Shown here piece after piece: positions 1 to 47,305 of a DNA stretch of 64,000 nucleotides. The stretch is taken from the IMG/VR virus record IMGVR_UViG_3300042882_001508; one strand, 5' to 3'. The notes beneath the pieces were generated by a model, which searched no databases, was not told the origin of the DNA, and saw only the letters and a list, made by a program, of their open reading frames with translations. Each line of letters begins with the position of its first letter. Position 1 is the stretch's first letter. Source of the DNA: a virus. Both the position numbers and the translations under genes were made by a program.

Positions 1-934
1 TCCTTGACTAACAATTTTTTTCTTATCCTTAATGTATTTCTTCAGTTTTTGAATCATCTCCTCCATCTTGTCAAGTCTTTTCTCTCCGTGAAAAATAAGT
101 AAATTCTCTTCATGTGAAGGTATTCTAATCCAATGACTAAGATGTTCTTCTGTACCTGTGAATTTGGAATTGCCATATATTTCATCAATTTCATCTGACC
201 CACCATTGACGTATACGTAAGGTAATCCATCAAGGAAATTATATTTCCAAAGTAATACATTTAAAATAGTTTCTTCATGGAATGGGGCATACCACTCAAA
301 GTTTTTCAAGACCTTCGGATGGTTACACATCCAATACCATTCATCCAAAAAGTCGATAGTTTTCTGTCCCGCGACAAAAATATTTGTTGTTCTGTACCTT
401 TGTCTAACATATTGGTTAATACCAAATAGTTCACAGGCGGGATGCTCTAACGTTGTACTTAAATCATCTCTACTATCAGCACCACCTCTAGTACCCACAA
501 AAAGATAATCGTAAACACCTTCAGTGGCGTAAGGATAAACTTTATCGGTATCGTACAAATCGAAAACTCTATCAATGTACGGTGTTACAATCACATCACT
601 ATCAATATAAGCTATGGTTTCCGAATAATTCAATAATGCGTGTCGAGTCACATTTGGTCTTTGTATCAAAAGTTTGAATATTCTCTCATTTGACCTATTG
701 ATATAAAAATTAGAATCTGAGTCATGATACATGTTCCCACCATCCTCACCTAAATCACAATCCCATTTTATAGTTATAACGTTTTCGAAATCTAACTTCA
801 AATCACAGTTTAAAAAATAAACTATAACGGGTAAATCACTAAATTCACGAATTGATTTTACACAAGTTTTAACGATATCAAAATAGTTTTCATTTGCATA
901 AAGAACGAATGATTTTTCGAATTTAACTTTCATA
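1..934 (-). CDS. Glycosyltransferase, probably GT-A fold with a DxD motif. It runs off the left edge of the window and has no stop inside it
   Basis: Hand translation of the minus strand from the ATG at 934..932 stays open to position 1. It begins MKVKFEKSFVLYANENYFDIVKTCVKS...IAYIDSDVIV... and contains a DSD (DxD) motif typical of nucleotide-sugar transferases. It is not in the ORF track because it has no stop in the window. Confidence 0.45.
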
Positions 935-936
935 AT

Positions 937-1554
937 TTAGTAACTTTTTTTTACTGACCAAGTTCCAAACCATTCATTTGTCAACGTTAATTCATATCCA
1001 TAATCTTCACAAAACTCATCAACTGCAGGATTTACACCAAAAACACCGTGATAAAAATTTCCATTCCAAATATGTTTGTCTTTTTTATTTGGTAAATAAT
1101 TTGGGTCATTGTACCAATCTAAATCAATATAATCGTGACCAAGGATATACCCACCAATTTTCACTTTTGGAAACCATAATTTGATGTCCTGAACAACATA
1201 ATCGTAAGCGTGATTTGCATCGATATATACAAAATCTAAAGAATGGTCGTTGAATATTTTTGCGGAAATTTCAGATGAGGCCCTAATCATTACGGCTCTG
1301 TCTTCATATCCCTCAATGTTTTTCATCGCCTCCTCGTAAACATTTTCACTTTGAAGTAGATGATTACTTGAATCTATATACCCATCTTTTAGTCCTCTCC
1401 AAACATCTACCATGTAGAGTGTACCATTCCAATTTTGAATTATTTGTTTGGAGAAAGAACCCTTGAAGGTTCCAACTTCAACACCAACCCCGTTCGGAAA
1501 CTGAGAACATATTTTTGACATCAATTCTACTCTGTTCAATCCATTTTTTTTCAT
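937..1554 (-). CDS. Class I SAM-dependent methyltransferase, Methyltransf_24/TylF-FkbM-like sugar O-methyltransferase type
   Basis: Has a motif-I-like VEVGTFKGSFS, then DFVYIDANH and GGYILGHDY. This spacing is typical of glycan or antibiotic O-methyltransferases. Confidence 0.5.
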   Translation of the reverse strand: MKKNGLNRVELMSKICSQFPNGVGVEVGTFKGSFSKQIIQNWNGTLYMVDVWRGLKDGYIDSSNHLLQSENVYEEAMKNIEGYEDRAVMIRASSEISAKIFNDHSLDFVYIDANHAYDYVVQDIKLWFPKVKIGGYILGHDYIDLDWYNDPNYLPNKKDKHIWNGNFYHGVFGVNPAVDEFCEDYGYELTLTNEWFGTWSVKKSY

Positions 1555-1561
1555 ATGAAAA

Positions 1562-2506
1562 TTATATTTTTACTATTTCAATTATTTTTTTAAAAACTTG
1601 ATTTACGTTAGGATGACAAAGAAATTCTTTTTTATTTTCTAAGCATCCAACCAAAGAAGGTATGCCTTTAATTGTATTCCAATATTTTACACCATATTTC
1701 ATATCAGATGCACAGGCTAGTTCACATTCACCTGAAATATAATGGTATTTGTAATTTTGTGTACCTTTTCTATAAGGGGCTCTCAGTTTGTAATTAACAG
1801 AACTACCAAGTTGAAAAATATTTGCATCGGTGGTTCCTGCCAAATGTAACATACCCGAATCCATAGTAACCACCCCTAATGATTTTTGCATCAACCACCA
1901 TGTTTGAGAAATATCCGCCTTGTTCAATAAATTTAAACCTAGATTTATTGGAAAATCAAATACAGGTTTTTGGACGTTGGAATTTCCAATCTCACTTGAG
2001 TTTTTACCAACAGACACGACTGAAATTCCAACATCATTGAGGAGAGAGGTTAATAAAACCCACTTATCATATGACCAAGTTCTTGAAGCCCAAGTCTGTA
2101 CGGGATGAATTATTATAAAATCTTTTGGTAAATTTTCAATTTCTATAAATTTGTCAGGAATAAATTCCATCTCCATCTCGTTTGGTAAAAGCTGAAACCC
2201 TAAGCCAGCGGCATGAAATTGTCTTATATCGAATTGATTATGACGTAAAGAAATTCCAAATTTGTTTTCTACATTTGGTAAAAAACTATTTAGCATTTCA
2301 TATCTATCCTCAAGTACCTCTCTGTTACTATTTTGGGTTGACCACAACTCACTAACAAAAGTATTGTTTTTGAAAATAATGGGATGGTGTGTAAGGACTG
2401 CAATCTTTTTACCATATGAGTAGTATAGTTTTTTTAATGTAGGGGTTGCACATATTGTGTCTCCCAATCCTCTTGACTCAGTTAAATCCAAACAGACTTC
2501 ACTCAT
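1562..2506 (-). CDS. GT9-like glycosyltransferase (heptosyltransferase family)
   Basis: N-terminal GLGDTICATPTLKKL resembles the GT9 family signature (LGD..xxTP). The protein is 314 aa, a typical GT9 size. Confidence 0.4.
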   Translation of the reverse strand: MSEVCLDLTESRGLGDTICATPTLKKLYYSYGKKIAVLTHHPIIFKNNTFVSELWSTQNSNREVLEDRYEMLNSFLPNVENKFGISLRHNQFDIRQFHAAGLGFQLLPNEMEMEFIPDKFIEIENLPKDFIIIHPVQTWASRTWSYDKWVLLTSLLNDVGISVVSVGKNSSEIGNSNVQKPVFDFPINLGLNLLNKADISQTWWLMQKSLGVVTMDSGMLHLAGTTDANIFQLGSSVNYKLRAPYRKGTQNYKYHYISGECELACASDMKYGVKYWNTIKGIPSLVGCLENKKEFLCHPNVNQVFKKIIEIVKI

Positions 2507-2568
2507 ATGAGAAAATTTAAATTTTTAATCCTGATTTACAAAAATAAAATTTAATTTAGTTTTTTCAT

Positions 2569-3495
2569 ATGGAAAGCCTAGCCAATGTGACCTCACTTTT
2601 CAAGTTTGATATTGTGGGTGATAAATATAAAATAACTTATCTCGGAAAGCCACCGATATATATAAATTTTTCGGTGAAACTGAAAGGTCTCAGTGTCCCT
2701 GTACAAACAATTAGGCACGAATATCAAACAAAAGGGGAATGGTTTATACCAAGTATTGATTATACGGGTTGTGCTATTTTGGAGGTAAGAAACTATGAAA
2801 CTAAGCAATACCTGTTCGATAAAGTTATAAACCCTGTGGTTAGTAAAAAAAGAAAAGAACAAAATATTATTTGTATTGGACTTAATAAGACAGGCACTAG
2901 TTCTTTCTCTGAATCCCTTCAAAAATTAGGATTTAGACTATCACCGGAAGGACTTAATTTTATGACTTGCGTTCAAGATGTACTTTTTGATGATTTAAAT
3001 TCTACATTTTCAATCTTGGAAAACGAGAGATATAATCTCTATGAAGACATGCCATATTCATTTCCATTACTTTACGAAAAAATTTACGAAAGAAGGCCTG
3101 AAGATGTTTTTGTTCTCACAGTAAGAAATGATGTCGAAACATGGATAAAATCTGTGATTAATTTTTATCCCTTACTCCAAAATAAAACAGAAAAAGAATG
3201 GGAAGACAAATCTTATATGAGATATGTGTGGAGTAATGAAAAAGACGATATTTTACTCAATAATCAATTTCCTTTATTAGATGCTTGGGGAATAAAAGAT
3301 ACCACAAATTTGGAGTCAAAACTTAGGGAAATTTATAATACTCATAATCAAAGTGCCATAGAATTTTTTTCACGGAAAAAATCAAATTTCATTGTAATCG
3401 ATGTGTCAAAAAAGAACGAACTTAAAAGATTGTCTAATTGGTTGGGAATTGAAACAAATCAAAATGATTTTGATTGGGTAAACAAAAACAGTTAA
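2569..3495 (+). CDS. Sulfotransferase-domain protein; the ~95 aa N-terminal domain is unknown
   Basis: IICIGLNKTGTSSFSE matches the sulfotransferase 5'-phosphosulfate-binding loop (xKTGTT). FVLTVRNDVETWIKS resembles the 3'-phosphate-binding RxxxxxxxS motif. The C-terminus has the L..WLGIE pattern typical of the family. Confidence 0.45.
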   Translation: MESLANVTSLFKFDIVGDKYKITYLGKPPIYINFSVKLKGLSVPVQTIRHEYQTKGEWFIPSIDYTGCAILEVRNYETKQYLFDKVINPVVSKKRKEQNIICIGLNKTGTSSFSESLQKLGFRLSPEGLNFMTCVQDVLFDDLNSTFSILENERYNLYEDMPYSFPLLYEKIYERRPEDVFVLTVRNDVETWIKSVINFYPLLQNKTEKEWEDKSYMRYVWSNEKDDILLNNQFPLLDAWGIKDTTNLESKLREIYNTHNQSAIEFFSRKKSNFIVIDVSKKNELKRLSNWLGIETNQNDFDWVNKNS

Positions 3496-3781
3496 TTCTT
3501 GGAAATTTTCTTTTTTTCTTTTCCATTATAAAGTCTAAGAAGCTTCAAGGAATCTTTATAATGCTTTTCCAACCTATCCAATTCTTCGATAGGAGTGTTT
3601 GTTTCACAAGCCGAATTATATTGTTCTTCAGCTTCTTGTATTATCTTCTTTATTGTTTTGAGAAGTTTCATATCCTATAAATATTGTCAATTCCTTCCTT
3701 TATTTAACAAGTTAAGAAATTATATTTTGAAGTGTATAAAAACATCGGAACGGGTTATTTATAAGGTAAGAGTAATTTTAA

Positions 3782-6700
3782 ATGGCAGGTTATTATAATT
3801 TTTCAGGAACAAGTTGTACCGATGGACTAGACTATGAATTGTGGACCTTTTATCCACCAGGAGTAACAATTAGTATAGGTTCTGTTTTAAGCGGGGTTAC
3901 GACTTTGGATTATTATACAGTAATTTCTACACCTGTAATTACTCTATCACAACCAGGTTTTGAAGTAGATGGAAACGTAGATTATGGAAGTTGTCCAGCA
4001 ACTCCTACACCTACCGAAACACCCACAAATACTCCAACTCCGAGCGTAACCGAAAGTGAAACTCCAACTCAAACACCTACTCAAACTCCAACTCCCACAA
4101 CATATTGTCTTTGTAATTATTTCGACATGACTATAAGTCAAGCCGATTTGGATGCTGCCATTGGTAACATCACTTTCTTGAATAACACGGTTTATGTTCA
4201 ATATCTTGATTGTTATGGAAATTTTCAAATAACAACATACTCATCTGCAGGTAGTTTCCCAAATACTTTCTGTGCAAGATATGTTCAAGCAACATATTAT
4301 TATGTGAGTGATACACCTGTTGTAGCTGGTACTTCATTCCCTACTGACACATTTAATGATTGTTGTCCGACACCAACACCAACTGAAACATCTACTCAGA
4401 CCCCTACTGAAACACCATCCAATACTCCCACAGAAACCCCAACTCAGACACCTTCACAAACAACTAGCCAAACTCCAACTCAGACTGAAACGGCAACTCA
4501 AACTCCAACTGAGACGCCCACTCAAACCGCAACGCCATCTGCAACAGAAACGCCAACCCAAACTCCAACGGAAACTCCTACACAAACAGAGACAGCAACA
4601 CAAACTCCGACGGAAACTCCTACACAAACAGAAACACCTACACAAACCCCGACACCTGATAGTTCACCAACTCCAACACAAACTGAAACTCCGACAGAGA
4701 CTCCTACTGAAACCCCAACTCAGACTGCAAGTGAAACACCTACTGAAACTCCAACGCAAACCGAGACGCCTACACAAACTCCAACGCCTAATAGTACCCT
4801 AACACCTACTGCCACGGAGACTCCTACAGAAACTCCAACAGCGACCGAAACTCCAACGCAGACACCAAGTGATACGCCAACTCAAACTCCCACTGAAACA
4901 CCAACAGAAACTCCTACACAAACAGCTTCAGAAACTCCTACACAAACAGCCTCAGAAACTCCTACACAAACAGCTTCAGAAACTCCTACACAAACAGCTT
5001 CAGAAACTCCAACTGAGACGCCGACTCAAACTGCTACACCATCTACAACTCCAACGTTTGGGTTAACACCTACCTCAACAGAGACACAAACCCCTACTCA
5101 AACAGAGACCCCAACTCAGACCCCATCAAACACTTCTACTGAAACGCCAACACAAACAGAAACCCCAACAGAGACACCTACTGAAACTCCAACTCAAACT
5201 GCGAGTGAAACACCAACTGAGACCCCAACTCAAACAGAAACGGCCACACAAACTCCGACACCTGATAGTACCCAAACACCGACTGCGACGGAGACTCCTA
5301 CAGAAACTCCAACGGCGACCGAAACTCCTACACAAACCTCAACTCCAACACAAACACCTGGATTGACACCTACACAAACTACAACTCCAACTTTAACACC
5401 TGAGTTAGTCATTCAATTTGAGGAATGTGATTCAAACTTTGTATTTCGTTTTGCAGGTAGTCCGATGGCTTATCTCCCCGTTGATTCGGTTTATTTGATT
5501 GAGGGTAGTTTGGATTTTTCGGGCTGTGCTACGGTTGTGGCATATACTTCAGAAGGTCCACTTTATAATTCTGCTGGAGTTACATTTACTGAAATTGATT
5601 ACTGTGGTAATACGACTTACTGTCCAAGAACTGATAGAAAGGCTGCACAACTTGCAAGATGTAGGGATGGTCTGTTGAGTTATTTCATGGTGGATGTAGA
5701 CACTGCATTCCAATATGGTGTTTATTTCTATCAAGGAGATTGTTGGAAATTTGTAAGATTTGATGGACCTGGTGGTCCATACCTTGGTTCACCAAGTTAT
5801 TTCAGCTGCGAAGATACTGTATGTATACCAACACCAACACCAACTGTAACGCCAAGAGAAACACCAACACAAACTCCAACACCATCCCCAACTCCAACTG
5901 CTTGTCCTTATTCAACTTTTTGTTTTAGAACAACTCAACCTGACCTTGAGGACTTCAGTGGAAATTATACTGAGTATGGCTACGTATATAATGATGAACT
6001 AACTTATTCAGGAGATGGAATTAACATTGGAGTAATTTATTATTTCACATCTTCAACTGAGAGTTATTGGTGTTTAAGCACTTCTTTGGGTGGTTCATGT
6101 GTACTTAGAGGTTCATCACCTTGTAATTCGAACTGTCCTGACATCAGTGGAAACTTCTTCACTTCAGGTGTTTGTCCTACACCTACACCTTCACCATCTG
6201 CCTGCACAATTGACTTTGTTGCATATTTTGATTGTGATTGGGAACCTGTCCCGACGCCGACCTTGACTGTCACAGATGTTGATTTTGATGTAACAAGCAT
6301 TGGACTAACTCCAACACCAACCTCTACAAATCCATGTTTAGGTAAGGCTGTGGAATTCCAATTATATGAGTCTACACCTACACCAACACCATCAAACACC
6401 GCAACACCAACTAGCTCAAGAGTTTATGAACCAGTTGGAGGTAAAGTGTCGTTCGAAATCTTTGATTCACCAATCTCTTGTCCTGAAGTGGCTATTCTCA
6501 AAGAATGCACTCAAGGAACAGATTTCTACTTCTGCGCACAAAATCAATTGGTATTCAACGGTCTTGTTGTGGAACCTGGTACAATAATGAATGCAATTAT
6601 CAACGGACAGTATGTTTGCGTTGAATATATTGGTAATCGTTCTAACACTTCATCAAATTCTGTAATCACCTCTATTATCAACCTTTATTCAGATTGTCAG

Positions 6701-7657
6701 AGCTGTGTTGTTTTTCCAACACCAACAGTTACTCTCACTCCTACTCAAACTCAAACGCCATCTAATACTGCAACACCAACTCAAACCGCGACAGTAACAC
6801 CAACTACTACAACAACAAGAACACCAGATTTGACCCCTGACCCAACAACATCAATAACACCGACAAATACGGCTTCAAACACTCCTACACCGTCTTATAC
6901 TCAAACACCAACCCCAACCAATTTGCAAAAGTATTATGTGTTTACCCTCTGTCCTAATCAAGAAAGTACAATAAGATTTAATAGATTGTTCCAAACTTCA
7001 CCACTCACGGTTCCAATCCTTCCAACCAAAGTATTCACCGATGACAATGGTTTGTGCTGGACATATGAAGGATTCACAACAGCAATTGTTCCAAATCCAA
7101 ATTATGTTGACTTGATTTGGCAAGACAATTATTTCGGTACCGCGGGAGAATTGCAATCGGATACTTGTGACGAGTGCCTCACAACATCTACAAAAATAAA
7201 TCTTCAACTTCAAGTTTTCCCAAGCTTTGAGGGATATATCCCAAGTGGGGCAACAACAACATTTGATAGTCCAAACTTTGGCGTCTCTTTCTATGATGGA
7301 ATTGACCCGAATAATGGAACATTATTTTATCCACCATCTGATGTGTTGAACGACGGTGTAATTGTATTTAATTTGATTACCTTAATTGGTTCAGACCCTT
7401 ATTCAATTTCTAAGTTAGCGGTGGGAGTAATTCACGGAAGATTTTTCTCAAAGGCAAATGTTATTGTTAAAGCATATATTAATGGAGTTTTAGCAAGCCA
7501 AGTAACACAACTTATTGAAGGAAATAGTGAAAACTTCGGAATTCAAATTGGAGGTTTGTTTGAAGAAATAAACTGTGTATCGAACCCGTGTTTGAGAGAA
7601 TTAAATAGAGGAGACATATTACTTATAACAGTAGAACAAAATTCAGAAATAGGATAA
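3782..7657 (+). CDS. Giant Thr/Pro-repeat protein (1291 aa) with several Cys-bounded modules. Putative virion fibre or adhesin
   Basis: Long [11 protein letters not shown] linker blocks alternate with ~90 aa Cys-containing modules (CLCNYF...DCCPTP; ...CIPTPTPT). A ~400 aa non-repetitive C-terminal region follows. Confidence 0.7.
4922..5012 (+). repeat. Tandem 24 nt coding repeat (about 4 copies) encoding (TQTASETP)n
   Basis: acagcttcagaaactcctacacaa repeated four times with one or two substitutions. Confidence 0.8.
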
Positions 7658-7873
7658 ATGGCACTTACAATAACCATATCATCAATAACTGGCACGTCAC
7701 CTTACAATGTATATCTCTGTGAGGGAGATGGAACTGGATGTTTTTATATAAATCAGATTTCATCCACACCCTACACATTTGACATACCAGCACCCTATGA
7801 TACATCAACATCATATATGGTAAAAATAGTAGATGCTGTAGGTTGTATTATAACTTCCACTCAATCATTATGA
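7658..7873 (+). CDS. Small protein (71 aa) homologous to the N-terminal module of the next gene
   Basis: ITISSITGTSPYNVYLCEGDGTGCFYINQISSTPYTFDIPAPYD aligns with VTITSVTANTPVNIYYCDSLSASCVFVSSVATFPFVFDVPAPYD of the downstream protein. Its start codon abuts the upstream stop (TAAATG). Confidence 0.5.
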   Translation: MALTITISSITGTSPYNVYLCEGDGTGCFYINQISSTPYTFDIPAPYDTSTSYMVKIVDAVGCIITSTQSL

Positions 7874-9423
7874 GCCAACAAGTAACCATAACATCAGTAA
7901 CCGCAAACACACCAGTGAACATCTATTATTGTGATTCACTCAGTGCTTCCTGTGTTTTTGTTTCTAGTGTGGCTACATTCCCATTTGTATTTGACGTGCC
8001 AGCACCATACGACGAACAAAATTTTGTAATAAAAATTGAAGATACCTCAGGATTTGAAGATTATAAAACAATCGACATCACTCCTACCTCCACAAGTCAA
8101 CCCACCACAACTCCAACTAATACTCCGAGCCAAACTCCTACTCAGACACCAACGAATACACCCTCAAATACTACAACACCATCTCAAACGGGGACACCAA
8201 CTCAAACACCTTCTACATCAATTGAGGTATATCCCCCAATTCAACCGAGTCCAAATGTTGTTCAACACCCTGTAGGACAGAGTGTTGTTTGTGAAGCGGC
8301 AAATGCGTGTGATGATACCTTGACAACTAGAGTTCTATACAATTATGAAGCAGATGCTTCGGTGCAACCTGTGATAGGTATTACAATTTATTCTGCTTAT
8401 TTCAGTTCAGCTTTATACGACCCTTATAATGGCAACAACGAGTGGATTTTGATGAGTTGGATTAATGGAACCTATGCCGTACAGATTACACCACAGGGAA
8501 CAATCAAAAGTTTTGTTCTTTGTCAAGAAAATCCAACTCCTTCACCAACAAAAACGCCAACTACTACACCCACTAATACACCAACTCAAACTCAAACTCA
8601 GACACAAACACCAACGCAAACAGCAACACCTTCAACAACAGCAACGATAGGTCTAACCCCAACATCAACTGAAACACCAAGTCAAACCCCAACCCAAACT
8701 CCATCTACAACAACAACACTAACTGCAACACCAACCCAAACACCATCTCAAACTCAAACGCAAACCCAAACTCCATCTACAACAACAACACTAACTGCAA
8801 CACCAACCCAAACACCATCTCAAACTCAAACGCAAACCCAAACTCCTTCTAATACAGAAACACCGACACAAACTCCAACACCTTCAACTACTCCAATTTG
8901 TTGTAATTGCTTTGCATTGACAAACGAAGGAGACCCAACCAATACAAATACTACAAATTATACAGATTGTGATGGTAATCCACAATCTATTATAAATAAA
9001 ATACAATTTGCAACTGCAACTTACTTCTGTGCAGTTCCAGGGTCAATTACAACATCTGGAGGTTTGACCGTGCTCCAAGTTCCTGATGACCTACTCACTT
9101 GTGGTGGTTCTTGTCAACCATGTCCAACTCCTACACAAACCCCATCACAAACGGAAACACAAACCCAAACACCAACACCTTCACCAACACCAAATACTGG
9201 TTGTTATTCTTTAACAAATGAAGGAGACCCCACAGAAACCAATCTGACCACTTACACAGATTGTGATGGAAATCCACAATCAATTGTAAATAAAGCGTTC
9301 GAGTCAGGAGCAACTTACTTCTGTGCTCTTCCTGGTACAATCACATTTTCATCAGGTTTGACAGTAATAATGGTTGATGATAATTTAGGAACATGTGGAT
9401 ATAGTTGTGGAGGTTGTACATAA
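7870..9423 (+). CDS. Thr/Pro-repeat Cys-module protein. Putative fibre component
   Basis: Start revised to MSQQVTITS, an ATGA overlap with the upstream stop. It has TP/TQ linker blocks and two tandem ~80 aa Cys modules (CCNCFALTNEGDPT...CQPCPTP; GCYSLTNEGDPT...CGGCT). Confidence 0.7.
   Translation: MSQQVTITSVTANTPVNIYYCDSLSASCVFVSSVATFPFVFDVPAPYDEQNFVIKIEDTSGFEDYKTIDITPTSTSQPTTTPTNTPSQTPTQTPTNTPSNTTTPSQTGTPTQTPSTSIEVYPPIQPSPNVVQHPVGQSVVCEAANACDDTLTTRVLYNYEADASVQPVIGITIYSAYFSSALYDPYNGNNEWILMSWINGTYAVQITPQGTIKSFVLCQENPTPSPTKTPTTTPTNTPTQTQTQTQTPTQTATPSTTATIGLTPTSTETPSQTPTQTPSTTTTLTATPTQTPSQTQTQTQTPSTTTTLTATPTQTPSQTQTQTQTPSNTETPTQTPTPSTTPICCNCFALTNEGDPTNTNTTNYTDCDGNPQSIINKIQFATATYFCAVPGSITTSGGLTVLQVPDDLLTCGGSCQPCPTPTQTPSQTETQTQTPTPSPTPNTGCYSLTNEGDPTETNLTTYTDCDGNPQSIVNKAFESGATYFCALPGTITFSSGLTVIMVDDNLGTCGYSCGGCT
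8701..8844 (+). repeat. Tandem 72 nt coding repeat (2 copies) encoding [24 protein letters not shown]
   Basis: Two near-identical 72 nt units read directly from the sequence. Confidence 0.8.
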
Positions 9424-9455
9424 AAATCTGAAAAATATACTTATAGAATATATAA

Positions 9456-11654
9456 ATGTCTTGTAATTGTTACCATATCGAAATCCCACAATCCGTACAA
9501 ACCAACGGTGTTAATGAAATATATCTTTGGCAAAAACTTTGTAACTTATACTATATTGCTGGAGTTTGGAACGGCTCTCTTTTGACTTATATGGATGGAA
9601 CTACCGCGGTTTATGACCTGTGTTTGGACAACGAATATGGTATTGAATTTAGTTATGGGTTTAGTGGACCCAAATTCACAACATCTGAGGTTCCTGAAAT
9701 TACAGTAAATATTTTGGGTACTTGTACGGTAATTGGAGATTGTTATACACCACCAACACCCACTCAAACACAAACCCAAACTCAAACGCCATCGCCGACT
9801 CTTACATTAACAGCATCTCCAACCCAAACACCAAGCCAAACTCAGACACCATCACAAACCGGCACACCACCACCAACACCTACTCAAACACAAACCCAAA
9901 CTCAAACACCTTCACCCACAAAAGTTGTCTGTGGCATAGGAGTAACATCTCAAAGTTTTTATTATTATGATTGTTGTGGAAATCTGATATCATCTACTGG
10001 TGCAGGTCAAGAAGTGTCTTTTGATTACACTAAACCTTACCAAGGAGTTACAAAATTGAACCTCTCTACTTCCTCAGTTTGTCCAACTCCAACGCAGACT
10101 CAGACACCGAGCCAAACTCCAAGTCAAACCCAAACTCCAACACAAACACCATCTCAAACTCAAACGCAAACCCAAACGCCAACATCCACCCCTGTACCTA
10201 CGTGTTCTGCTCAACCAAATTTAGCCAACGAGTGTGAAGTTTTCACTCTATTCGATATGGGAGTTCAATGTAACTTGATTAAAGAGCCAACTGTCGGAAG
10301 ATTTGATGGTATATTATCAGTTAATGTGACAGGTGGAACAGCACCTTATACTTTCTATTGGAATACTGGTGAAAGGACTCAAACCATTTCTAACATACCT
10401 TATGGAAGGTACACAGTTCTTGTTGTGGATTATTATGGAGATTATTCCGCCACAACTGCGTGTAATATATTGGCTCCAACACCAACAGCTACTACCACAC
10501 CAACAATCACACCCACACCGTCAACAACACCACCTAACGCTCCACCGTTGTGTTTAAGATTTGTTTCACCTCCGAGTTTTGGAGGGTCTGGTGGCTCTGC
10601 TATGTATAAGGAATTACCTCTGACTTTCGTGACCTCTGGAAACCAAAACGGGAAACCAACGTGGTATAATTATTCAAAAAATCTTTCGATTATTTGGAAT
10701 GACTCAGTAACTCCTAACAGATGGGATATAACAAATTGGCCTTACGGAGGAACACCTATTTCAACAAACCAAGGAACAATACCAGATACAGGATGGCAGT
10801 TCTTGGGTACACCGGGTGTTTATTCCCAAATTGTTTCATCAAGGGGTCAATGTCCTTCGGTTTCTCCATTAGTTTTTGAATATCAAATAACACCAGCTTC
10901 TTGTCCAGGAGTTTGTAACGGAAGTTTGGTGGTTGTGCCAGGAGGAGGAATGACACCATTCAGCTACTCGGTTGATGGCGTTAATTTCCAAAGTTCAAAT
11001 ATTTTCAACAACTTGTGTCCTTCTACTTTCGGTCTTACAATAAAAGATGCTGTAAATCAAACTTATAGTCAATCCATAACAATTGGTTCAGGAACAGCAA
11101 CTACTTTGCAATTGAAACCTGAAATCATTACAAGTAATGGACCTGTCGCAAGTGGACCAAGTGTACAGACAGTAACATGGAAAATAACTTCTAATCCACC
11201 AATACCTGCTGGTGTTTCTTTAACAGGTCAAATCTTGTTCGAAATTTCACAAACAGAACAAGGTCCGACTAGCAGTTCAGGTCCAGCGACAACTTATTTA
11301 ATCAATGCATCTAACGTTGCAATTCAAAATAATTCTACATTAACTTTGTTGACATCTCCTATCATAACTCAAAGTGTCCCGAGTACTTGTAATTCAGCTC
11401 TTGTTTCAGCTTCGAATGAAAATTACTCACAATCAACTCTTGTTACTTTAGGAAATGGATTTATTTTGACAGGTACAACTGTTTCATCATTGAATATTAC
11501 GGGTGGAATTACTCAATTTAACTGTTCAACTACAGCTAAACAAACAATTTCGTTGACCCTTTCAAATTTCAAAGTTTTAGGAAATCCGTGTTACACGGTA
11601 CAAACACAGAATTTGGTATTGGTCAATAATCATACTTACACAATTTCGAGTTAG
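9456..11654 (+). CDS. Thr/Pro-linker protein carrying SprB-type repeats. Putative adhesin-like fibre or receptor-binding protein
   Basis: Two segments fit the SprB repeat pattern of Flavobacterium gliding adhesins: GRFDGILSVNVTGGTAPYTFYWNTGERTQTISNIPYGRYTVLVVDYYGDY and CNGSLVVVPGGGMTPFSYSVDGVNFQSSNIFNNLCPSTFGLTIKDAVNQ. TP/TQ linkers and an N-terminal Cys module (SCNCYHI...GDCYTPPTP) are also present. Confidence 0.7.
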   Translation: MSCNCYHIEIPQSVQTNGVNEIYLWQKLCNLYYIAGVWNGSLLTYMDGTTAVYDLCLDNEYGIEFSYGFSGPKFTTSEVPEITVNILGTCTVIGDCYTPPTPTQTQTQTQTPSPTLTLTASPTQTPSQTQTPSQTGTPPPTPTQTQTQTQTPSPTKVVCGIGVTSQSFYYYDCCGNLISSTGAGQEVSFDYTKPYQGVTKLNLSTSSVCPTPTQTQTPSQTPSQTQTPTQTPSQTQTQTQTPTSTPVPTCSAQPNLANECEVFTLFDMGVQCNLIKEPTVGRFDGILSVNVTGGTAPYTFYWNTGERTQTISNIPYGRYTVLVVDYYGDYSATTACNILAPTPTATTTPTITPTPSTTPPNAPPLCLRFVSPPSFGGSGGSAMYKELPLTFVTSGNQNGKPTWYNYSKNLSIIWNDSVTPNRWDITNWPYGGTPISTNQGTIPDTGWQFLGTPGVYSQIVSSRGQCPSVSPLVFEYQITPASCPGVCNGSLVVVPGGGMTPFSYSVDGVNFQSSNIFNNLCPSTFGLTIKDAVNQTYSQSITIGSGTATTLQLKPEIITSNGPVASGPSVQTVTWKITSNPPIPAGVSLTGQILFEISQTEQGPTSSSGPATTYLINASNVAIQNNSTLTLLTSPIITQSVPSTCNSALVSASNENYSQSTLVTLGNGFILTGTTVSSLNITGGITQFNCSTTAKQTISLTLSNFKVLGNPCYTVQTQNLVLVNNHTYTISS

Positions 11655-11692
11655 ACTATAAAATGAAATCTAAAAAACTATATTTATAAGGG

Positions 11693-13942
11693 ATGGGTTA
11701 CGTAATTAAAAATACATCTGGTTTAATTAACACAAGATTGACTGACGTTGGAAGAAGACAAATCTCCCAAGGAAGTTTCAATATTTCTTATTTTCAAATT
11801 GGAGATAGTGAAGTTTGTTACACCGCAGCTACGAATTACAATCAGGTTAACAACAACATCTTAATGCCTTCTTTTGATGCTCAAAATAACACAGGTTATC
11901 CAGAAGCAAACAAAGAGAATATCAAATACCCATATTATGTTTCAGGTGGACAGGGTGGTACATTTGGAATACCATTCATGGCTAGTGATTACCAATTGGT
12001 TTACAACAGTGCCGGTTTAAAAGGATTTTTCAACACGGGCTCAACCACACCTTGGGTTGCTCAGATAAGTACAGCTTACACAATAACCTCCAATTATGTT
12101 GTAGATATGTCTACATGTTCAGGTCAGACTTCAATTTCAATTGAACTTGACCCTACTATTTGTGCGACCACAACAGGAACACCTTCAATAGGTGATTTTA
12201 TAACAATTTTCTTTGACGGAGTGGGTAGTTGTCAAGATGTTAACAATGTGCCAATATTGACTTACAAGATTATCAATTTATCACCGTCAGTTGGAACTAC
12301 AAGTCAGAGCCCTTGGGTTGTTACATTAGATAGAGAGGTCCCTAATTATACTGCACTTACATCAGGAAGTTATGCGAGAACACTAATTTACCCTTCGGGT
12401 ATGACTGTTCTTTATGATTTTATTACACCAGCACCTTATTGGCAAACTGATACCTTGAATTTTGAATCTCCGTGTGATGTGACTAATAGAGAAAATACTT
12501 TGATTTGGAATATGAATATTCCTTGGTCAGAGAGTCCAGCGGGAGTGTTTTCAAACACGGTACAGGGGTATCAATATTACGATTCAATTTCTTATTTAGG
12601 TTCAAAAGAATATTTGGGATATTCAACACAATCAGGTCAAACATTTGAAATTTCCACCACAAGAGCAAACGAACTAACTGACACATATTATTATAATTCC
12701 TATGGTGAAGAGGTTAAAGTATACCCAAATCAACAGAAAGCCATTGCAATAATCCATTACACAAATCAAGATATTGATTTTGTCTATGGTGAAAAGTTTG
12801 CTACAGTTCCTTTTGACCCACAAAACCCAACAGACGATACAGGACTTGCTCGTCATTTCAAACTTTATATTCCAACATTGATGTGGCATAAATCGACAGG
12901 AGCTACAATCGGTCAGACTTTCATGATTGACCCACCGAATTATGATTTGTGTAAACCACATTATATGAAGTCTACCAAAAACCTGAGAATGAATGAACCA
13001 GGTATGAGGTATTTCCAACTTTGGGATTTAAATCCAGATGCTAATAATAATTTGAACAGGGTAGGTAAAGTTTTCCCTGACCAACAAATTATTGTAATCG
13101 ATGATGAAGAGATTGTTGCTGCGTTATCTAACAAGTCTAATAGAAATTGGACCCTTACAGCCCCAAAAGTAAGTGCAGTTGTTCCAAATGTTTGTAGTAC
13201 AAATAATAATCTTCCTTTGTTTACACAGGCCTCAGATACAATTTGGCTGTCATATAGATTAGACTCAAATTCAAGTGGTTTTACAAATTCATTACATTGT
13301 AACTACTACTCCAAGGTAAATGCGCCAAGTAACACTACGGCAACAAATTGTTATAATTTGGCTGTTCAATTTGGAAACGAATTTCCCTATTTGAACTCAA
13401 ATTGGAGTTCTACTAACGTCACAGGTTTTAGTGCAAACTCAATCAAATTATTGGTTCAGAAAGTAAGTGGAGATACAAAACCTTCACAAACTGAATGGAG
13501 AGAAATCGACGTTACTTCAGATATTTCAAGTACGTTGTTGAACGGATACTTAACCGTAAGTGGAATAACAGGAAACACTTTCCAAATAGACGGTACAACT
13601 TTTGACAATGCGGCTCCTAACACCTACAACCTTTCCAATTATATCGATATTCCCTTACTTGGTGCAACAGGACCAACTTTAAACTTTGGTGGTGAGTATT
13701 ATTTTTACGGGAGTTTGGAAACTGATATTGCGGCAACTATCTACGAAATGAAATATCTTGTGAATTTGGGTAGAAACCAATTTACAAATACTTCGAACCC
13801 TACATGGATGTCAGGGACAACATCTTATGTCACCGAAATTGGTCTTTACGATTCAAATTATAATCTTATAGTTATATCTAAACTACAATCTCCTGAGAAA
13901 AGACAAGGTGTTCAGCAGTATGTAGTTAAATTAGATTTCTAA
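11693..13942 (+). CDS. Large virion-associated protein (749 aa), function unknown. Possibly fibre or baseplate associated
   Basis: A long ORF with uniform codon usage that follows the fibre-like genes. No motif was recognised. Confidence 0.5.
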   Translation: MGYVIKNTSGLINTRLTDVGRRQISQGSFNISYFQIGDSEVCYTAATNYNQVNNNILMPSFDAQNNTGYPEANKENIKYPYYVSGGQGGTFGIPFMASDYQLVYNSAGLKGFFNTGSTTPWVAQISTAYTITSNYVVDMSTCSGQTSISIELDPTICATTTGTPSIGDFITIFFDGVGSCQDVNNVPILTYKIINLSPSVGTTSQSPWVVTLDREVPNYTALTSGSYARTLIYPSGMTVLYDFITPAPYWQTDTLNFESPCDVTNRENTLIWNMNIPWSESPAGVFSNTVQGYQYYDSISYLGSKEYLGYSTQSGQTFEISTTRANELTDTYYYNSYGEEVKVYPNQQKAIAIIHYTNQDIDFVYGEKFATVPFDPQNPTDDTGLARHFKLYIPTLMWHKSTGATIGQTFMIDPPNYDLCKPHYMKSTKNLRMNEPGMRYFQLWDLNPDANNNLNRVGKVFPDQQIIVIDDEEIVAALSNKSNRNWTLTAPKVSAVVPNVCSTNNNLPLFTQASDTIWLSYRLDSNSSGFTNSLHCNYYSKVNAPSNTTATNCYNLAVQFGNEFPYLNSNWSSTNVTGFSANSIKLLVQKVSGDTKPSQTEWREIDVTSDISSTLLNGYLTVSGITGNTFQIDGTTFDNAAPNTYNLSNYIDIPLLGATGPTLNFGGEYYFYGSLETDIAATIYEMKYLVNLGRNQFTNTSNPTWMSGTTSYVTEIGLYDSNYNLIVISKLQSPEKRQGVQQYVVKLDF

Positions 13943-13944
13943 TT

Positions 13945-14547
13945 ATGGGACGTAAACAAATCAAAGAGGATTCACCGAAGGTCCTCGGTCTAGATATTTC
14001 CACAAAAACAATCGGATGGGCACTTTTCGATATCGGGACAAAAAATTTATTGGAACTCACCCATGTTTCTCCAAGACCGAAAGATGTTGAAAATAAAATT
14101 GAGGAATTAATTCTCAAAGCAATTATTTTTAGAAACAAGTTGGAACAATACGTTGGACTTGGAATACAAAAGGTTGTAATCGAAGAACCGTTACTTAACT
14201 CAAATAACATTTGGACCGTAAGCACACTTATGAGATATAATACTCTGATTTGCAAAGAAGTGTATGATGTTTTGGGTATAGTTCCTGAATTTATTTCAAC
14301 TTATAACTCAAGAAAATTTGCATTCCCGCACTTGGTTCAAAAAAATGAAAAAGGAAAGTTTGTATTATTTGGCGGTTTTTCAAAAGACATAGACAAAAAA
14401 GTTGTAATTTGGGAACTTGTTGCAAAAAGGGAACCACAAATAACTTGGCAATACACCAAAAATAATACCCTGAAAAAAGAAAATTACGACCAAACAGATG
14501 CCTATTGTGCAGTCTTAGGATACATGAAATCACAAGACCTTTGGTAA
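13945..14547 (+). CDS. RuvC-like Holliday-junction resolvase
   Basis: N-terminal VLGLDISTKTIGWALFD resembles the RuvC/A22 GxDxGxxxxGxA motif. C-terminal DQTDAYCAVLGY resembles the RuvC terminal acidic motif. Confidence 0.55.
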   Translation: MGRKQIKEDSPKVLGLDISTKTIGWALFDIGTKNLLELTHVSPRPKDVENKIEELILKAIIFRNKLEQYVGLGIQKVVIEEPLLNSNNIWTVSTLMRYNTLICKEVYDVLGIVPEFISTYNSRKFAFPHLVQKNEKGKFVLFGGFSKDIDKKVVIWELVAKREPQITWQYTKNNTLKKENYDQTDAYCAVLGYMKSQDLW

Positions 14548-32460: not shown

Positions 32461-33378
32461 ATGAAAGATTACTATAAAATATTAGAAGTTGAAGAGAATG
32501 CGACTGATGACGAAATCAAAAAAAGTTTTAGAAATCTGTCCAAAAGATATCATCCCGATTTAAATCCCGAAGGGGCTGAAAAATTTAAAGAAATTAATGA
32601 GGCTTATGAGGTTCTTGGGGACCAACAAAAAAGGTCAAACTACAACAACCAAAAAAACAATCCCTATGGTGGTACACCTTTCGAAGCAATTTTTTCTCAA
32701 ATGTTTGGAAACAGAGGTCCCAACCAACCAAGAAGAAAGCAAGCACCCGATAAGATTGTAAAAGTCAGTGTTTCACCAATTGAGTCATATCGAGGCTCTC
32801 AAAAAAATATAATGTATTTCAGAGACACTCATTGTGCTACTTGTAACGGTACAGGGGGTGACCAAAGAATTTGTAATACTTGTGAGGGAAGTGGTTTTAT
32901 AATAAAAACTTTTGGAACAGGTTTTATGGTTCAACAAATAAGAACCGCATGTCCTTCTTGTCAGGGAAAGGGATATAATTTAATTTCAAGGTGTTATGAC
33001 TGTCAAGGAAGAGGAACAAAATCATCCAAAAATGAAATTTCAATAAATCTACCTGTTGGGGTTGATAATGGTCAGTTTGTTAAAATTCCTAACGTGGGAG
33101 ATTTCAAAAGTGGAGACTATGGAGATTTGATTTTACAAATTGAACTTGAACCAAAAGATGGTTTCGAAAAGATTAATAGTGATTTGGTTTACACTTTATA
33201 TTTGGATTTGAATGGGATAAATTCCGACAAATATAAAATCCCTCATCCCGACGGGGAACTTCAAATTCCGGCACCCAAATCCTTTGATACCTCCAAACCA
33301 CTCAGACTGAGAGGTAAGGGATATAGTGGAGGGGATATGTATGTTAAATTACAAGTAAAGTTTGAAAGAACTAATTAA
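32461..33378 (+). CDS. dnaJ: DnaJ-like co-chaperone with a J domain and a CxxCxGxG zinc-finger domain
   Basis: J domain DYYKILEVEENATDDEIKKSFRNLSKRYHPDLN carries the HPD motif. Four CxxCxGxG repeats follow (CATCNGTGG, CNTCEGSGF, CPSCQGKGY, CYDCQGRGT). Confidence 0.75.
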   Translation: MKDYYKILEVEENATDDEIKKSFRNLSKRYHPDLNPEGAEKFKEINEAYEVLGDQQKRSNYNNQKNNPYGGTPFEAIFSQMFGNRGPNQPRRKQAPDKIVKVSVSPIESYRGSQKNIMYFRDTHCATCNGTGGDQRICNTCEGSGFIIKTFGTGFMVQQIRTACPSCQGKGYNLISRCYDCQGRGTKSSKNEISINLPVGVDNGQFVKIPNVGDFKSGDYGDLILQIELEPKDGFEKINSDLVYTLYLDLNGINSDKYKIPHPDGELQIPAPKSFDTSKPLRLRGKGYSGGDMYVKLQVKFERTN

Positions 33379-33704: not shown

Positions 33705-33741
33705 ATTTGCTTTTTGAGTTTTTTTGTGTTATATTTTATTC

Positions 33742-34581
33742 ATGTTAAGTTATATTGGTGGTAAATCCAAAATAGGTAAGTGGATTGTACCTTATTATCT
33801 TGAAGACATGGAAACATATGTCGAAACATTTGGAGGTATGTTTTGGTGTTACTTCAACATGGACCTATCAAAATTCGAAAATCTAAAAAGAGTTGTTTAC
33901 AATGATTTCAACCCTTTGAATTACAATTTATTTAGATGTGTTCAAAACCCTTCTAAATTACAAAGACACTTAGATAATATACCTGTGCAAGAATTCGGTG
34001 TTTCACCTACCGACCAAATTTATAAGATTAGATTTCAGGAGTTTCAAACAGAACTATTTTCGTCTGGTCTCACGATAAATTATCCTGATTATACGATTGC
34101 TGCAAAGTATGTTTATGTTGTGACACAAGTCTTCAGTGGTAGTAAACCTGAAAGTTCAAGTTTTATTGATTTGAAGGGGAAATACCGTTCTAAATATTTG
34201 GCTTTCAGAGACAAACTTTCCAATCCAAAATGGGTTGACCATTTCAGTAAAATTACTCACGTTGAAAATCTTGATTTCCAGCAGGTAATTGAAAAATACG
34301 ACTCCCCTTCAACTTACATTTATTTAGACCCTCCCTATTGGAAAACCGAAAATTATTATTCTAATCACGATTTCGATAGAAATGACCATGAAAGACTCGC
34401 TCAAAATTTGAGGTGTATACAAGGAAAATTTTCTCTATCATATTATGATTTCCCTTTATTACACGACTGGTTTCCTGAAGATAGATTTAGATGGGAAAAA
34501 AAACAATTTGCAAAAGCGGCTTCGGCAAAAAAAGGTGTAAAACAAAATTTAGGGGAAGAGCTTTTGATATTAAATTATTAG
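33742..34581 (+). CDS. Dam-family (D12 class) N6-adenine DNA methyltransferase
   Basis: N-terminal SYIGGKSK (Dam Y.GGK motif) and the catalytic DPPYW. Start revised to MLSYIGGK. Confidence 0.6.
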   Translation: MLSYIGGKSKIGKWIVPYYLEDMETYVETFGGMFWCYFNMDLSKFENLKRVVYNDFNPLNYNLFRCVQNPSKLQRHLDNIPVQEFGVSPTDQIYKIRFQEFQTELFSSGLTINYPDYTIAAKYVYVVTQVFSGSKPESSSFIDLKGKYRSKYLAFRDKLSNPKWVDHFSKITHVENLDFQQVIEKYDSPSTYIYLDPPYWKTENYYSNHDFDRNDHERLAQNLRCIQGKFSLSYYDFPLLHDWFPEDRFRWEKKQFAKAASAKKGVKQNLGEELLILNY

Positions 34582-44772: not shown

Positions 44773-44773
44773 G

Positions 44774-47277: not shown

Positions 47278-47305
47278 GAAAGGGGTTTTTTTAAACCCCT
47301 TTTAT
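47278..47305. terminator. Bidirectional intrinsic terminator between the convergent fibre gene and the minus-strand cassette
   Basis: aaaaaaag-aaaggggttt-tttt-aaacccctttt. The hairpin has an A-run on the 5' side and a T-run on the 3' side. Confidence 0.6.

Follow-up and report, generated by a model that had tools for sequence, protein, structure and literature searches.

Glycan gene clusters are familiar from giant viruses such as Mimivirus and the Megavirinae, and the chlorovirus PBCV-1 encodes a multidomain glycosyltransferase (GT)-GT-methyltransferase, A064R. In Bacillus, the exosporium protein BclA forms collagen-like filaments whose GxT triplets carry O-linked methylated sugars. Among phages, virion glycosylation has been described for the mycobacteriophages Che8, Corndog and Myrna (Freeman et al., 2023, cited in PMC12619734), and phage GTs are also known to glycosylate DNA (bioRxiv 10.1101/2023.12.21.572611; discussed in PMC12619734 for moraphages, which are freshwater jumbo phages of Bacteroidota with genomes of 200–307 kb). 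Members of family GT60 make GlcNAc-alpha-O-Thr on the mucins of T. cruzi (PMC9472816; PMC3769586).

We analysed a 64,000-nt stretch of DNA (the window; IMG/VR record IMGVR_UViG_3300042882_001508) from an uncultured freshwater jumbo phage. Positions 1–3495 encode four glycan-type enzymes, and three proteins with Thr/Pro (TP) linkers, of 1291, 517 and 732 aa, come next. A preliminary description of this DNA had reported a glycan-modification cluster beside giant mucin-like genes, and that observation is largely real. The Bacteroidota host that it named is plausible: indirect clues, namely SprB repeats, a fragment of a relative in a Ferruginibacter MAG, and T9SS-tailed proteins encoded by phages with a homologue of the sulfotransferase, indicate that the host is probably a member of this phylum.

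The leftmost ORF (1–933, minus strand) has no Pfam match at E ≤ 0.1, Glyco_transf_8 (PF01501) included; of the 216 homologues found for it, only P0001 has a precomputed PF01501 match. Its AF2 model (pLDDT 92) has a GT-A Rossmann-like fold, with top Foldseek matches in the PDB to GT6 GTA/GTB, glycogenin (GT8), UGGT (GT24) and LgtC (E 5e-7 to 1e-5, TM 0.4–0.48), and the DxD motif, D111/D113 (DSD in IDSDV), is invariant across 40 homologues. Judged by this model, the ORF is a retaining GT-A-fold glycosyltransferase domain, GT8/GT6-like. The earlier reading of it as a GT gene holds for the domain, but the ORF covers just the N-terminal domain: the gene continues past the left end of the window and encodes a polyprotein of 1570 aa. 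On the same strand lie a TylF/CmcI-like, SAM-dependent methyltransferase of the Methyltransf_24 family (937–1554; PF13578, 6.2e-17, 62.8 bits against a gathering cut-off of 26.3) and a stand-alone GT9-family glycosyltransferase of the heptosyltransferase type and GT-B fold (1562–2506; Glyco_transf_9, PF01075, 7.3e-10, 39 bits against 22). The former is probably a glycan O-methyltransferase; its sole PDB relative is weak (6g7d, ‘methyltransferase domain protein’), and in locus L012 its homologue forms a fusion with GT34. A sequence search for a solved relative of the GT9 protein found none, and relatives with 64–67% identity occupy the same position by the TP block.

The fourth enzyme (2569–3495, plus strand) is a predicted PAPS-dependent sulfotransferase. 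It matches Sulfotransfer_4 (PF17784; 7.6e-15, 55.8 bits against a cut-off of 22.8) over profile positions 2–212 of 215, has an extra N-terminal domain of ~95 aa, and contains a PAPS-loop-like motif, NKTGTSS (within GLNKTGTSS), read by eye. Its 48 homologues are metagenomic without exception. The gene was not found in 90 related loci, where unrelated Sulfotransfer_1/3 genes fill the slot; homologues also occur in other large phages, in surroundings without TP-linker proteins and once beside T9SS-exported phage proteins. Since the sulfotransferase runs in the same direction as the TP genes, the layout is three minus-strand genes and one plus-strand gene, rather than the four minus-strand enzyme genes first described. 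The enzyme families guessed at that stage were essentially right, with three of the four ORFs scoring above Pfam gathering thresholds and the first, which lacks a Pfam match, identified through Foldseek. The enzymes and TP proteins all lack TM segments and signal peptides, and hydrophobic segments of KD19 > 1.7 are absent from every cassette protein.

The sulfotransferase stop (3495) and the start of the 1291-aa gene (3782) are 286 nt apart, in agreement with the 290 nt reported, and a conserved 59-aa minus-strand ORF (3492–3671), previously overlooked, marks the boundary between cassette and TP block. TP1291 (3782–7657, plus strand) is a modular protein with 38 Cys, a conserved core (residues ~550–975) and a variable C-terminal domain (1084–1291). 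It is followed on the same strand by s71 (7658–7873), a single-domain protein of 71 aa without TP runs, and by TP517 (7870–9423), which was listed as TP526, of 526 aa, from a TTG start and has its true ATG at 7870. TP517 ends in two Cys-rich repeat domains, and s71 is paralogous to its N-terminus (blastp, 35% identity, E 4e-17). TP732 (9456–11654, plus strand) carries two SprB repeats (Pfam SprB, 2.4e-8) and, at its C-terminus, several Ig-like beta-sandwich domains in a row. Two further TP-rich proteins had been placed after the first within positions 1–9423; TP517 is one, whereas the other ORF there is s71 and the third TP-rich protein lies beyond that range. The TP runs themselves are real, making up 48%, 42% and 21% of the 1291-, 526- and 732-aa ORFs. 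They were sought in all 66 window ORFs and are present in none besides these three, and TRF detects DNA repeats beneath them. By composition and TRF, the three proteins thus have the long Pro/Thr/Ser-rich tandem repeats of mucin-like proteins. TP/PT linkers can also act unmodified as extended spacers, which counts against their glycosylation.

TP732, with 342 homologues, is the best conserved of the three, and its linker positions and flanking Cys are conserved in an alignment of 42 homologues. The AF2 model (pLDDT 89) is all-beta with tandem Ig-like domains. Its Foldseek matches are generic (integrin legs, GhpA, lambda gpJ, and phage SprB-repeat, tail and Hoc-like proteins), a PHROG match to ‘virion structural protein’ is weak (4e-5), and GenBank phages gave no match. 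With a conserved part that models as tandem Ig-like/SprB domains and has such generic adhesin, Hoc-like and tail matches, the name ‘fibre’ used in the preliminary description is unproven.

In aquatic phages, hypervariable islands often carry glycan genes, so that proximity by itself says little in favour of a link. The comparison with relatives covered 80 IMG/VR loci from jumbo phages as large as 321 kb, which share the conserved block TP1291-s71-TP526-TP732-p749, with s71 kept in 75. The 59-aa ORF, called as a gene in L091–L094, was found by tblastn in 42 related loci (44–92% identity), at the boundary position every time, and fixes the cassette insertion point. Glycan enzymes lie directly beyond it in 17 of 18 assessable architectures by our own count. 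Homologues of glycan enzymes were found 4–10 kb upstream of p749 in 47/80 loci and in the 12 kb downstream in only 3 (one cluster), a contrast that is biased because the glycan labels were derived from upstream ORFs. By Pfam, the 107 non-redundant upstream ORFs include sugar enzymes of many unrelated families; slot families in the relatives are GT9, GT2, GT34, GT29, GT-D, GT60 (polypeptide O-GlcNAc transferase), FkbM, DegT, hexapeptide acetyltransferases and unrelated sulfotransferases. Cassettes are unlike even where the flanking p749 shows 90–93% identity between phages. A cassette is visible in 21 of 27 linker-rich loci and in 1 of 5 others (Fisher p = 0.024, with lineages that are not independent). 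That the relatives keep a fixed spot and swap the enzymes suggests that these phages add sugars to surface proteins of their own. The synteny check proposed in the preliminary description came out positive, and with a stronger result, in that the position of the cassette by the TP block is kept although the enzyme families differ.

In distant relatives, a gene of PF11397, which we take to be CAZy family GT60, lies 18–57 nt upstream of a TP1291-core homologue on the same strand. The window's own phage lacks a GT60 gene, and its GT-A or GT9 enzyme is a candidate for the initiating transferase.

The remainder of the cassette is present in JGI metagenome contigs of the same phage, in which the first ORF is the 1570-aa polyprotein and an FkbM methyltransferase comes next (full-length polyprotein gene at L091:10622–15334). 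The polyprotein consists of five GT domains: GT-A, GT25, a second GT-A copy, GT4, and a weaker, GT9-like domain at the C-terminus (21.7 bits). Together with the sulfotransferase, GT9, Methyltransf_24 and FkbM, this gives a complete cassette of six GT domains, two methyltransferases and one sulfotransferase. The TP block is its right flank, and its left flank, outside the window, is a 1519-aa (GTS/GTT)n collagen-like protein whose number of repeats differs among samples. The cassette and flank ORFs examined belong to soluble GT or methyltransferase Pfam families or to none, and include no priming transferase, flippase, polymerase or ABC exporter.

We give a probability of about one half to the reading that the phage encodes its own O-glycosylation system, which acts in the cytoplasm on the TP linkers and on the neighbouring collagen-like protein. 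The window region would then be the right-hand part of a glycan-decoration cassette, whose soluble enzymes may work in the cytoplasm of the infected cell with host nucleotide sugars, SAM and PAPS. Short methylated, sulfated O-linked glycans would be built directly on Thr of the TP linkers in the three adjacent modular proteins, and the (GTS)n protein on the other side of the cassette is probably also an acceptor. We infer that the glycosylated proteins are carried out of the cell on the virion surface, where they would be exposed as adhesins, decoration proteins or fibres, and that the fixed hotspot, with its rapid, O-antigen-locus-like exchange between close relatives, could produce a variable ‘glyco-serotype’ of the virion surface.

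The preliminary description had left two readings open. Decoration of the phage's own proteins is favoured by the predicted GT60-type gene beside the TP1291-core homologue and by the lack of any membrane or lipid-carrier component. Its counterpart, in which the enzymes alter the host LPS core, O-antigen or capsule during infection (blocking superinfection, or keeping progeny from re-adsorbing to debris) and the TP proteins are unrelated, is weakened, and we regard it as unlikely. The classic enzymes of LPS and polysaccharide synthesis include GT9, GT25 and GT4, all present here, and GT2 and HtrL_YibB, which occur in relatives; they speak for host remodelling and against the own-protein reading, as do the sulfotransferase homologues away from TP proteins. 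Genes that tailor nucleotide sugars are also found in relatives (DegT, acetyltransferase, PfkB and, from reading by eye, an oxidoreductase in a neighbouring ORF). However, the cassette and flank ORFs examined show neither the membrane-embedded Gtr-type transferases or flippases nor the Wzx/Wzy dependence of seroconversion modules, and the cassette keeps its position by the TP block despite very different enzyme sets. Seroconversion modules are also a poorer match for the giant fused multi-GT proteins than the enzymes with which giant viruses glycosylate their virions, and GT60 members are, to our knowledge, known only as polypeptide Thr/Hyp GlcNAc transferases.

Two observations on the neighbourhood also sit against the own-protein reading. 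The genes directly downstream of the block are for replication/recombination (primase, SbcCD), with no recognised structural module, and p749, the most conserved neighbour, gave no recognisable fold or family in searches that included Pfam and PHROG.

Alternatively, the slot past the 59-aa ORF may simply tolerate insertions, so that mobile glycan genes gather there with another target or a niche-specific benefit. Cassette content is indeed patchy and turns over quickly, six assessable linker-rich loci have no known glycan enzyme, and in some relatives adhesin-like genes (LamG, collagen, SprB) stand upstream of the block in place of enzymes. We nevertheless find a plasticity hotspot with no functional link doubtful: the slot holds almost only glycan enzymes and no mixture of accessory genes, and the GT60 gene lies close to the TP gene and shares its strand. 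The slot has repeatedly received sulfotransferases and methyltransferases that are not homologous to one another, and this recurrence suggests that a single type of function is selected for. Finally, glycosylation of modified bases in the phage DNA as a defence against restriction is highly improbable: although phage GTs that do this exist, replication genes lie near the cassette and the methyltransferase matches a PHROG labelled ‘DNA methyltransferase’, the window ORFs scanned (from a roughly 300-kb genome) include no base-hydroxymethylating or TET-like enzyme but do encode DNA methylases of the ordinary Dam and N6/N4 types, one relative has the Methyltransf_24 homologue joined to GT34, and we know of no DNA-glycosylation system that features sulfotransferases, FkbM O-methyltransferases or five-domain GT polyproteins.

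If phage-encoded glycosylation of the TP proteins is correct, this locus would represent a further form of virus-encoded virion glycosylation. With giant viruses it shares multidomain GT/methyltransferase polyproteins, clade-specific, swappable glycan clusters, virus-made amino-sugar pathways (DegT and acetyltransferase in some of the phage relatives), and fibrous surface proteins that are decorated, putatively so here, with collagen-like proteins nearby. Giant viruses differ in having eukaryotic hosts and glycans that have been characterised biochemically, whereas here a tailed phage has sulfotransferases and putative TP-linker and (GTS)n acceptors. As in BclA, a collagen-like (G-T-S/G-T-T)n protein of variable repeat number adjoins GT and methyltransferase genes, but it is phage-encoded, lies outside the window and is a putative acceptor. 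The T. cruzi mucins are likewise Thr-rich, Pro-containing repeat acceptors, and PF11397-type enzymes are found upstream of TP proteins in the relatives (PMC3769586; PMC9472816); the reaction takes place in the Golgi there and putatively in the cytoplasm here, in a phage without a GT60 gene of its own. The likeness to moraphages is one of shared traits only: freshwater origin, related contigs of up to 321 kb, a predicted Bacteroidota host and a DnaJ homologue (window 32461–33378). Several GT orthogroups belong to the moraphage core genome, and TP-rich proteins, sulfotransferases and a cassette hotspot are not mentioned for them (PMC12619734). Mycobacteriophages, as cited there, come close in having soluble phage GTs, sometimes with methyltransferases, that are thought to O-glycosylate their own structural proteins in the cytoplasm, and soluble phage GTs are present here too. 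Their acceptors are short C-terminal tails of capsid and tail-tube subunits, with glycosylation shown by mass spectrometry; in this phage the putative acceptors, long mucin-like TP linkers, belong to separate modular proteins, and they are paired with a much larger enzyme set in a different host phylum.

The enzyme genes at the left end of the window lie on both strands. Three minus-strand ORFs, namely ORF A (933 to 1, at least 311 aa and running off the left end), a methyltransferase ORF (937–1554, 205 aa) and a GT9 ORF (1562–2506, 314 aa), are separated by a 62-nt divergent spacer from a plus-strand sulfotransferase ORF (2569–3495, 308 aa). Three of the four exceeded curated Pfam cut-offs (Methyltransf_24, 6e-17; Glyco_transf_9, 7e-10; Sulfotransfer_4, 8e-15). 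ORF A had no match in Pfam, PHROG or PDB sequence searches, and PDB sequence and profile searches were uninformative for it, for the GT9 and sulfotransferase ORFs, and for p749 and p200, the 749-aa and 200-aa proteins encoded farther downstream. An AF2 model of ORF A, built on 40 of its 216 metagenomic homologues, was confident (pLDDT 92) and resembled retaining GT-A enzymes (blood-group GTA/GTB, glycogenin, the UGGT catalytic domain and LgtC), and D111 and D113 were invariant among the homologues aligned. Because of these structural matches and the invariance of the two aspartates, we consider the call of a DxD glycosyltransferase in the preliminary description correct; its list of enzymes essentially stood, while the sulfotransferase, which it had placed on the minus strand, had to be moved to the other. 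No signal peptide or hydrophobic segment was found in any enzyme of this cassette or in the adjoining Thr/Pro-linker (TP) proteins, and a scan for sigma-70 promoters and terminators gave counts no better than in shuffled sequence.

An exact-pattern search of IMG/VR for the window returned no match, and the left flank was obtained from contigs encoding the exact methyltransferase protein, which occurs on contigs of many JGI freshwater metagenomes; lakes in which the phage is abundant include those of JGI samples 3300042471, 3300034096, 3300037508 and 3300046009. On the 74-kb contig behind L091, a locus of the same phage that extends leftward past the window start, ORF A forms the N-terminal domain of a 1570-aa protein, in which this GT-A domain is followed by a GT25 domain (2e-6), a second ORF-A-type GT-A copy read from the translation, a GT4/Glycos_transf_1 domain (1.5e-13) and a C-terminal GT9-like domain (1.4e-4, just below the cut-off). 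After the gene for this polyprotein comes an FkbM methyltransferase gene, convergent with a minus-strand gene just left of the window start (L091:16036–20595) for a 1519-aa collagen-like protein, in which G-T-S or G-T-T triplets account for about 1185 residues. Extending the window into L091 thus gives a full cassette of six GT domains, two methyltransferases and one sulfotransferase, with long Thr-rich repeat proteins on both flanks. A 1208-aa 'PV-rich' gene called in L091 proved to be an antisense frame of the (GTS)n collagen-like gene; the length of this antisense ORF varies by sample (1208, 1001 and 929 aa), and the repeat number of the collagen-like gene is therefore polymorphic. GSS/GTS collagen-like genes flank the cassette in L001–L009 and L063/L064 too.

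On the other side of the cassette, the plus strand encodes TP1291 (3782–7657, 1291 aa), the 71-aa ORF s71 (7658–7873), TP517 (7870–9423, 517 aa counted from ATG; the 526-aa length from a TTG start was an artefact of the ORF lister) and TP732 (9456–11654, 732 aa), followed by p749 (11693–13942, 749 aa) and p200 (13945–14547, 200 aa). Linker segments, defined as at least 50% Thr plus Pro in 12-residue windows, make up 48% of TP1291, 42% of TP517 and 21% of TP732, with underlying DNA repeats detected by TRF; among the 66 window ORFs, TP runs are confined to these three. Small Cys-rich globular modules stand between the linkers, and by eye each linker (window 3782–11654) has a Cys within a few residues of both ends, as in CPTPTP...TPxC. 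The linkers and flanking residues C82 and C112 are conserved in a 42-sequence alignment of the TP732 family, the Cys pair around one linker being invariant in the 42 homologues. This bracketing suggests disulfide-stapled modules that would be fit for an oxidising, extracellular life. TP732 also contains two SprB repeats (Pfam), and its conserved C-terminal 478 aa were modelled as a string of beta-sandwich domains (AF2, pLDDT 89) with low-TM Foldseek matches to integrin legs, the Aureispira grappling-hook protein, the lambda gpJ fibre, and phage 'SprB repeat', tail and Hoc-like proteins. The model fits a surface-exposed, adhesin-like, beads-on-a-string protein and is not proof of a fibre. A small domain of the type ITGxxPYxVYxCD forms both free-standing mini-proteins and the TP517 N-terminus (window 7658–7873 and 7870–8100), to which s71 is 35% identical; many ORFs of about 95 aa with such a domain are found in L066, L081 and L076.

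Neither megablast of positions 1–12000 nor tblastn of p749, the TP1291 C-terminus, ORF A and the TP732 C-terminus found a match in GenBank/INPHARED phages. There is no cultured relative to supply annotation or proteomics. In IMG/VR, p749 has 405 relatives on contigs of up to 321 kb, with 47–67% identity among the matches listed, and we retrieved 80 related loci for comparison. The gene order TP1291-core, s71, N-terminal part of TP517 (TP526), TP732, p749, p200, primase is widely kept among them; the conserved segments are TP1291 residues ~550–975, the N-terminal modules of TP517 and TP732 residues 250–730, and the C-terminal domain of TP1291 is variable. p749 matches nothing significantly in Pfam, PHROG or PDB sequences, profile searches included, and appears to belong to the core genes of the clade. 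We rejected p749 and p200 as tail sheath and tube: the N-terminus of p200 (KILGLDVSTKTIGWALFDI in relatives) is RuvC-like by eye, the protein itself matching nothing in Pfam or the PDB, and a primase and SbcCD lie downstream.

The cassette occupies a fixed place relative to this block. Searches by tblastn with 26 labelled enzymes gave matches 4–10 kb upstream of p749 in 47 of the 80 loci and, in the 12 kb downstream of it, in three loci only (one cluster), a contrast that is biased because the labels were drawn from the upstream set. A helical, charged 59-aa ORF (3492–3671, minus strand) overlaps the sulfotransferase stop by 4 nt and takes up most of the 286-nt gap ahead of the TP1291 gene. 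Its identity across 42 related loci is 44–92%. It is often better conserved than the genes beside it and in every case separates the variable cassette from the first TP gene. With this ORF as anchor, glycan enzymes were found directly beyond it in 17 of 18 assessable architectures. When linkers and cassettes were compared over 47 clusters at 95% p749 identity, a cassette was present in 21 of the 27 linker-rich loci with readable upstream sequence versus 1 of 5 without linker-rich proteins (p = 0.024, the lineages being non-independent). Cassettes differ between phages whose p749 proteins are 90–93% identical.

The cassette enzymes themselves are not kept across the 80 loci: the Sulfotransfer_4 gene is absent from all of them, a few have Methyltransf_24, some have ORF A homologues, and GT9 homologues occur in about 13 distinct contigs. 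When the 6 kb upstream of the TP block were scanned with Pfam, the 107 non-redundant ORFs there yielded many unrelated sugar enzymes (FkbM, DegT aminotransferases, hexapeptide acetyltransferases, Sulfotransfer_1/3, PfkB, GT-D-like, GT2, GT29, GT34, HtrL, DUF6625 and PF11397), together with SprB, LamG and collagen proteins. Giant fused enzymes of 1036–1914 aa in L003, L010 and L063 combine FkbM, ORF-A-type GT-A, GT4 and GT9, one of them adding a pyruvyl transferase; in L050, DegT and a hexapeptide acetyltransferase stand on either side of an ORF read by eye as an oxidoreductase; and non-homologous sulfotransferases occupy the same slot in L031 and L061. Seven distant relatives (L066, L067, L068, L077, L079, L084 and L086) encode a PF11397 protein of ~400 aa (up to 4.5e-73), a family that we take to be CAZy GT60, and in L066, L067 and L079 its gene precedes the TP1291-core homologue, on the same strand, by 18–57 nt. 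In L066 the GT60 gene spans 4571–5770 and is next to the gene for a 534-aa TP protein. Characterised GT60 members add GlcNAc to Thr of T. cruzi mucins (PMC9472816, PMC3769586).

Elsewhere, the window encodes SbcC/SbcD-like proteins, a primase, one tRNA-Met, a full-length DnaJ homologue (32461–33378), two DNA methylases (Dam-type (D12), 33724–34581; N6/N4, 56135–56998) and three consecutive plus-strand collagen-like tail-fibre genes (39626–47272; GAQ/GPT triplets, Peptidase_S74 chaperone end) with a G+C content of 46–55% versus about 33% for the remaining window. Three minus-strand ORFs that follow these genes (47291–49921) were considered as further glycan enzymes and set aside for want of a Pfam match. 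A Bacteroidota host, with Chitinophagaceae or Flavobacteriales as candidate groups, is plausible on indirect evidence: the SprB repeats, a fragment of a relative in a Ferruginibacter MAG, and T9SS-tailed proteins in phages that share the sulfotransferase family. The latter proteins (L096/L097, 5501–7561 and 11385–13277), on a large-phage contig with a 45%-identical sulfotransferase, carry signal peptides and T9SS C-terminal domains (CHU_C, Por_Secre_tail, Cohesin) and would be phage proteins that are apparently exported to the surface of a Bacteroidota host. Moraphages, recently named freshwater jumbo phages of 200–307 kb with predicted Bacteroidota hosts, have DnaJ homologues and several core GT orthogroups, and this phage may belong to their lineage or to a related one; the locus is not described in that paper (PMC12619734).

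The best-supported reading is that the system carries out phage-encoded, cytoplasmic protein O-glycosylation, for which we infer the acceptor, the chemistry and the location in the virion. The acceptors would be the TP linkers adjoining the cassette and probably the (GTS)n protein too, methylation and sulfation would provide terminal decorations, and the swapping of cassettes would diversify the product. In its full form, to which we assign a probability of roughly 0.35, the reading covers a widespread clade of jumbo phages that infect freshwater Bacteroidota. The surface proteins of their virions, namely the Thr-Pro linker proteins with their bracketing Cys residues and the collagen-like (GTS)n fibres, would be coated with phage-made methylated, sulfated mucin-type O-glycans. 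The enzymes would come from a serotype-like cassette that is exchanged at a fixed hotspot, even where the phages are nearly identical. The original observation, a glycan-enzyme cluster directly upstream of mucin-like fibre genes, is partly confirmed, and its interpretation is partly supported.

Remodelling of host glycans by the cassette enzymes still stands as an alternative, consistent with the LPS-type families in the cassette and with sulfotransferase homologues in unrelated contexts, but it is weakened by the fixed position of the cassette, by the presence of GT60 in relatives and by the absence of membrane and export components. A general tie between the sulfotransferase family and TP-linker proteins was rejected, three divergent homologues lying in other large-phage contexts without such proteins. 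A plasticity hotspot functionally unconnected to the TP genes likewise stays in contention as an account of the slot. Glycosylation of DNA by the transferases is unlikely: the window ORFs scanned included no partner enzyme for base modification, and the window encodes DNA methylases of the ordinary kind.

If protein O-glycosylation is the correct reading, abundant uncultured freshwater jumbo phages would bear a rapidly diversifying glycan coat that could influence how the phages recognise hosts, adhere to particles or mucus, withstand proteases and grazers, and behave as colloids. Their cassettes would be a natural source of protein O-glycosyltransferases, glycan O-methyltransferases and sulfotransferases that are soluble, work in the cytoplasm and each have a defined peptide acceptor, and the products would include the first phage sulfoglycoproteins. 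To our knowledge, mycobacteriophages are the tailed phages in which virion glycosylation has been demonstrated to date, and there it protects the particles from antibodies. Provided that the proposed acceptor is right, the locus would represent a new form of virus-encoded virion glycosylation, comparable, in a tailed phage, to the glycosylation of giant-virus fibrils and to the O-antigen loci of bacteria.
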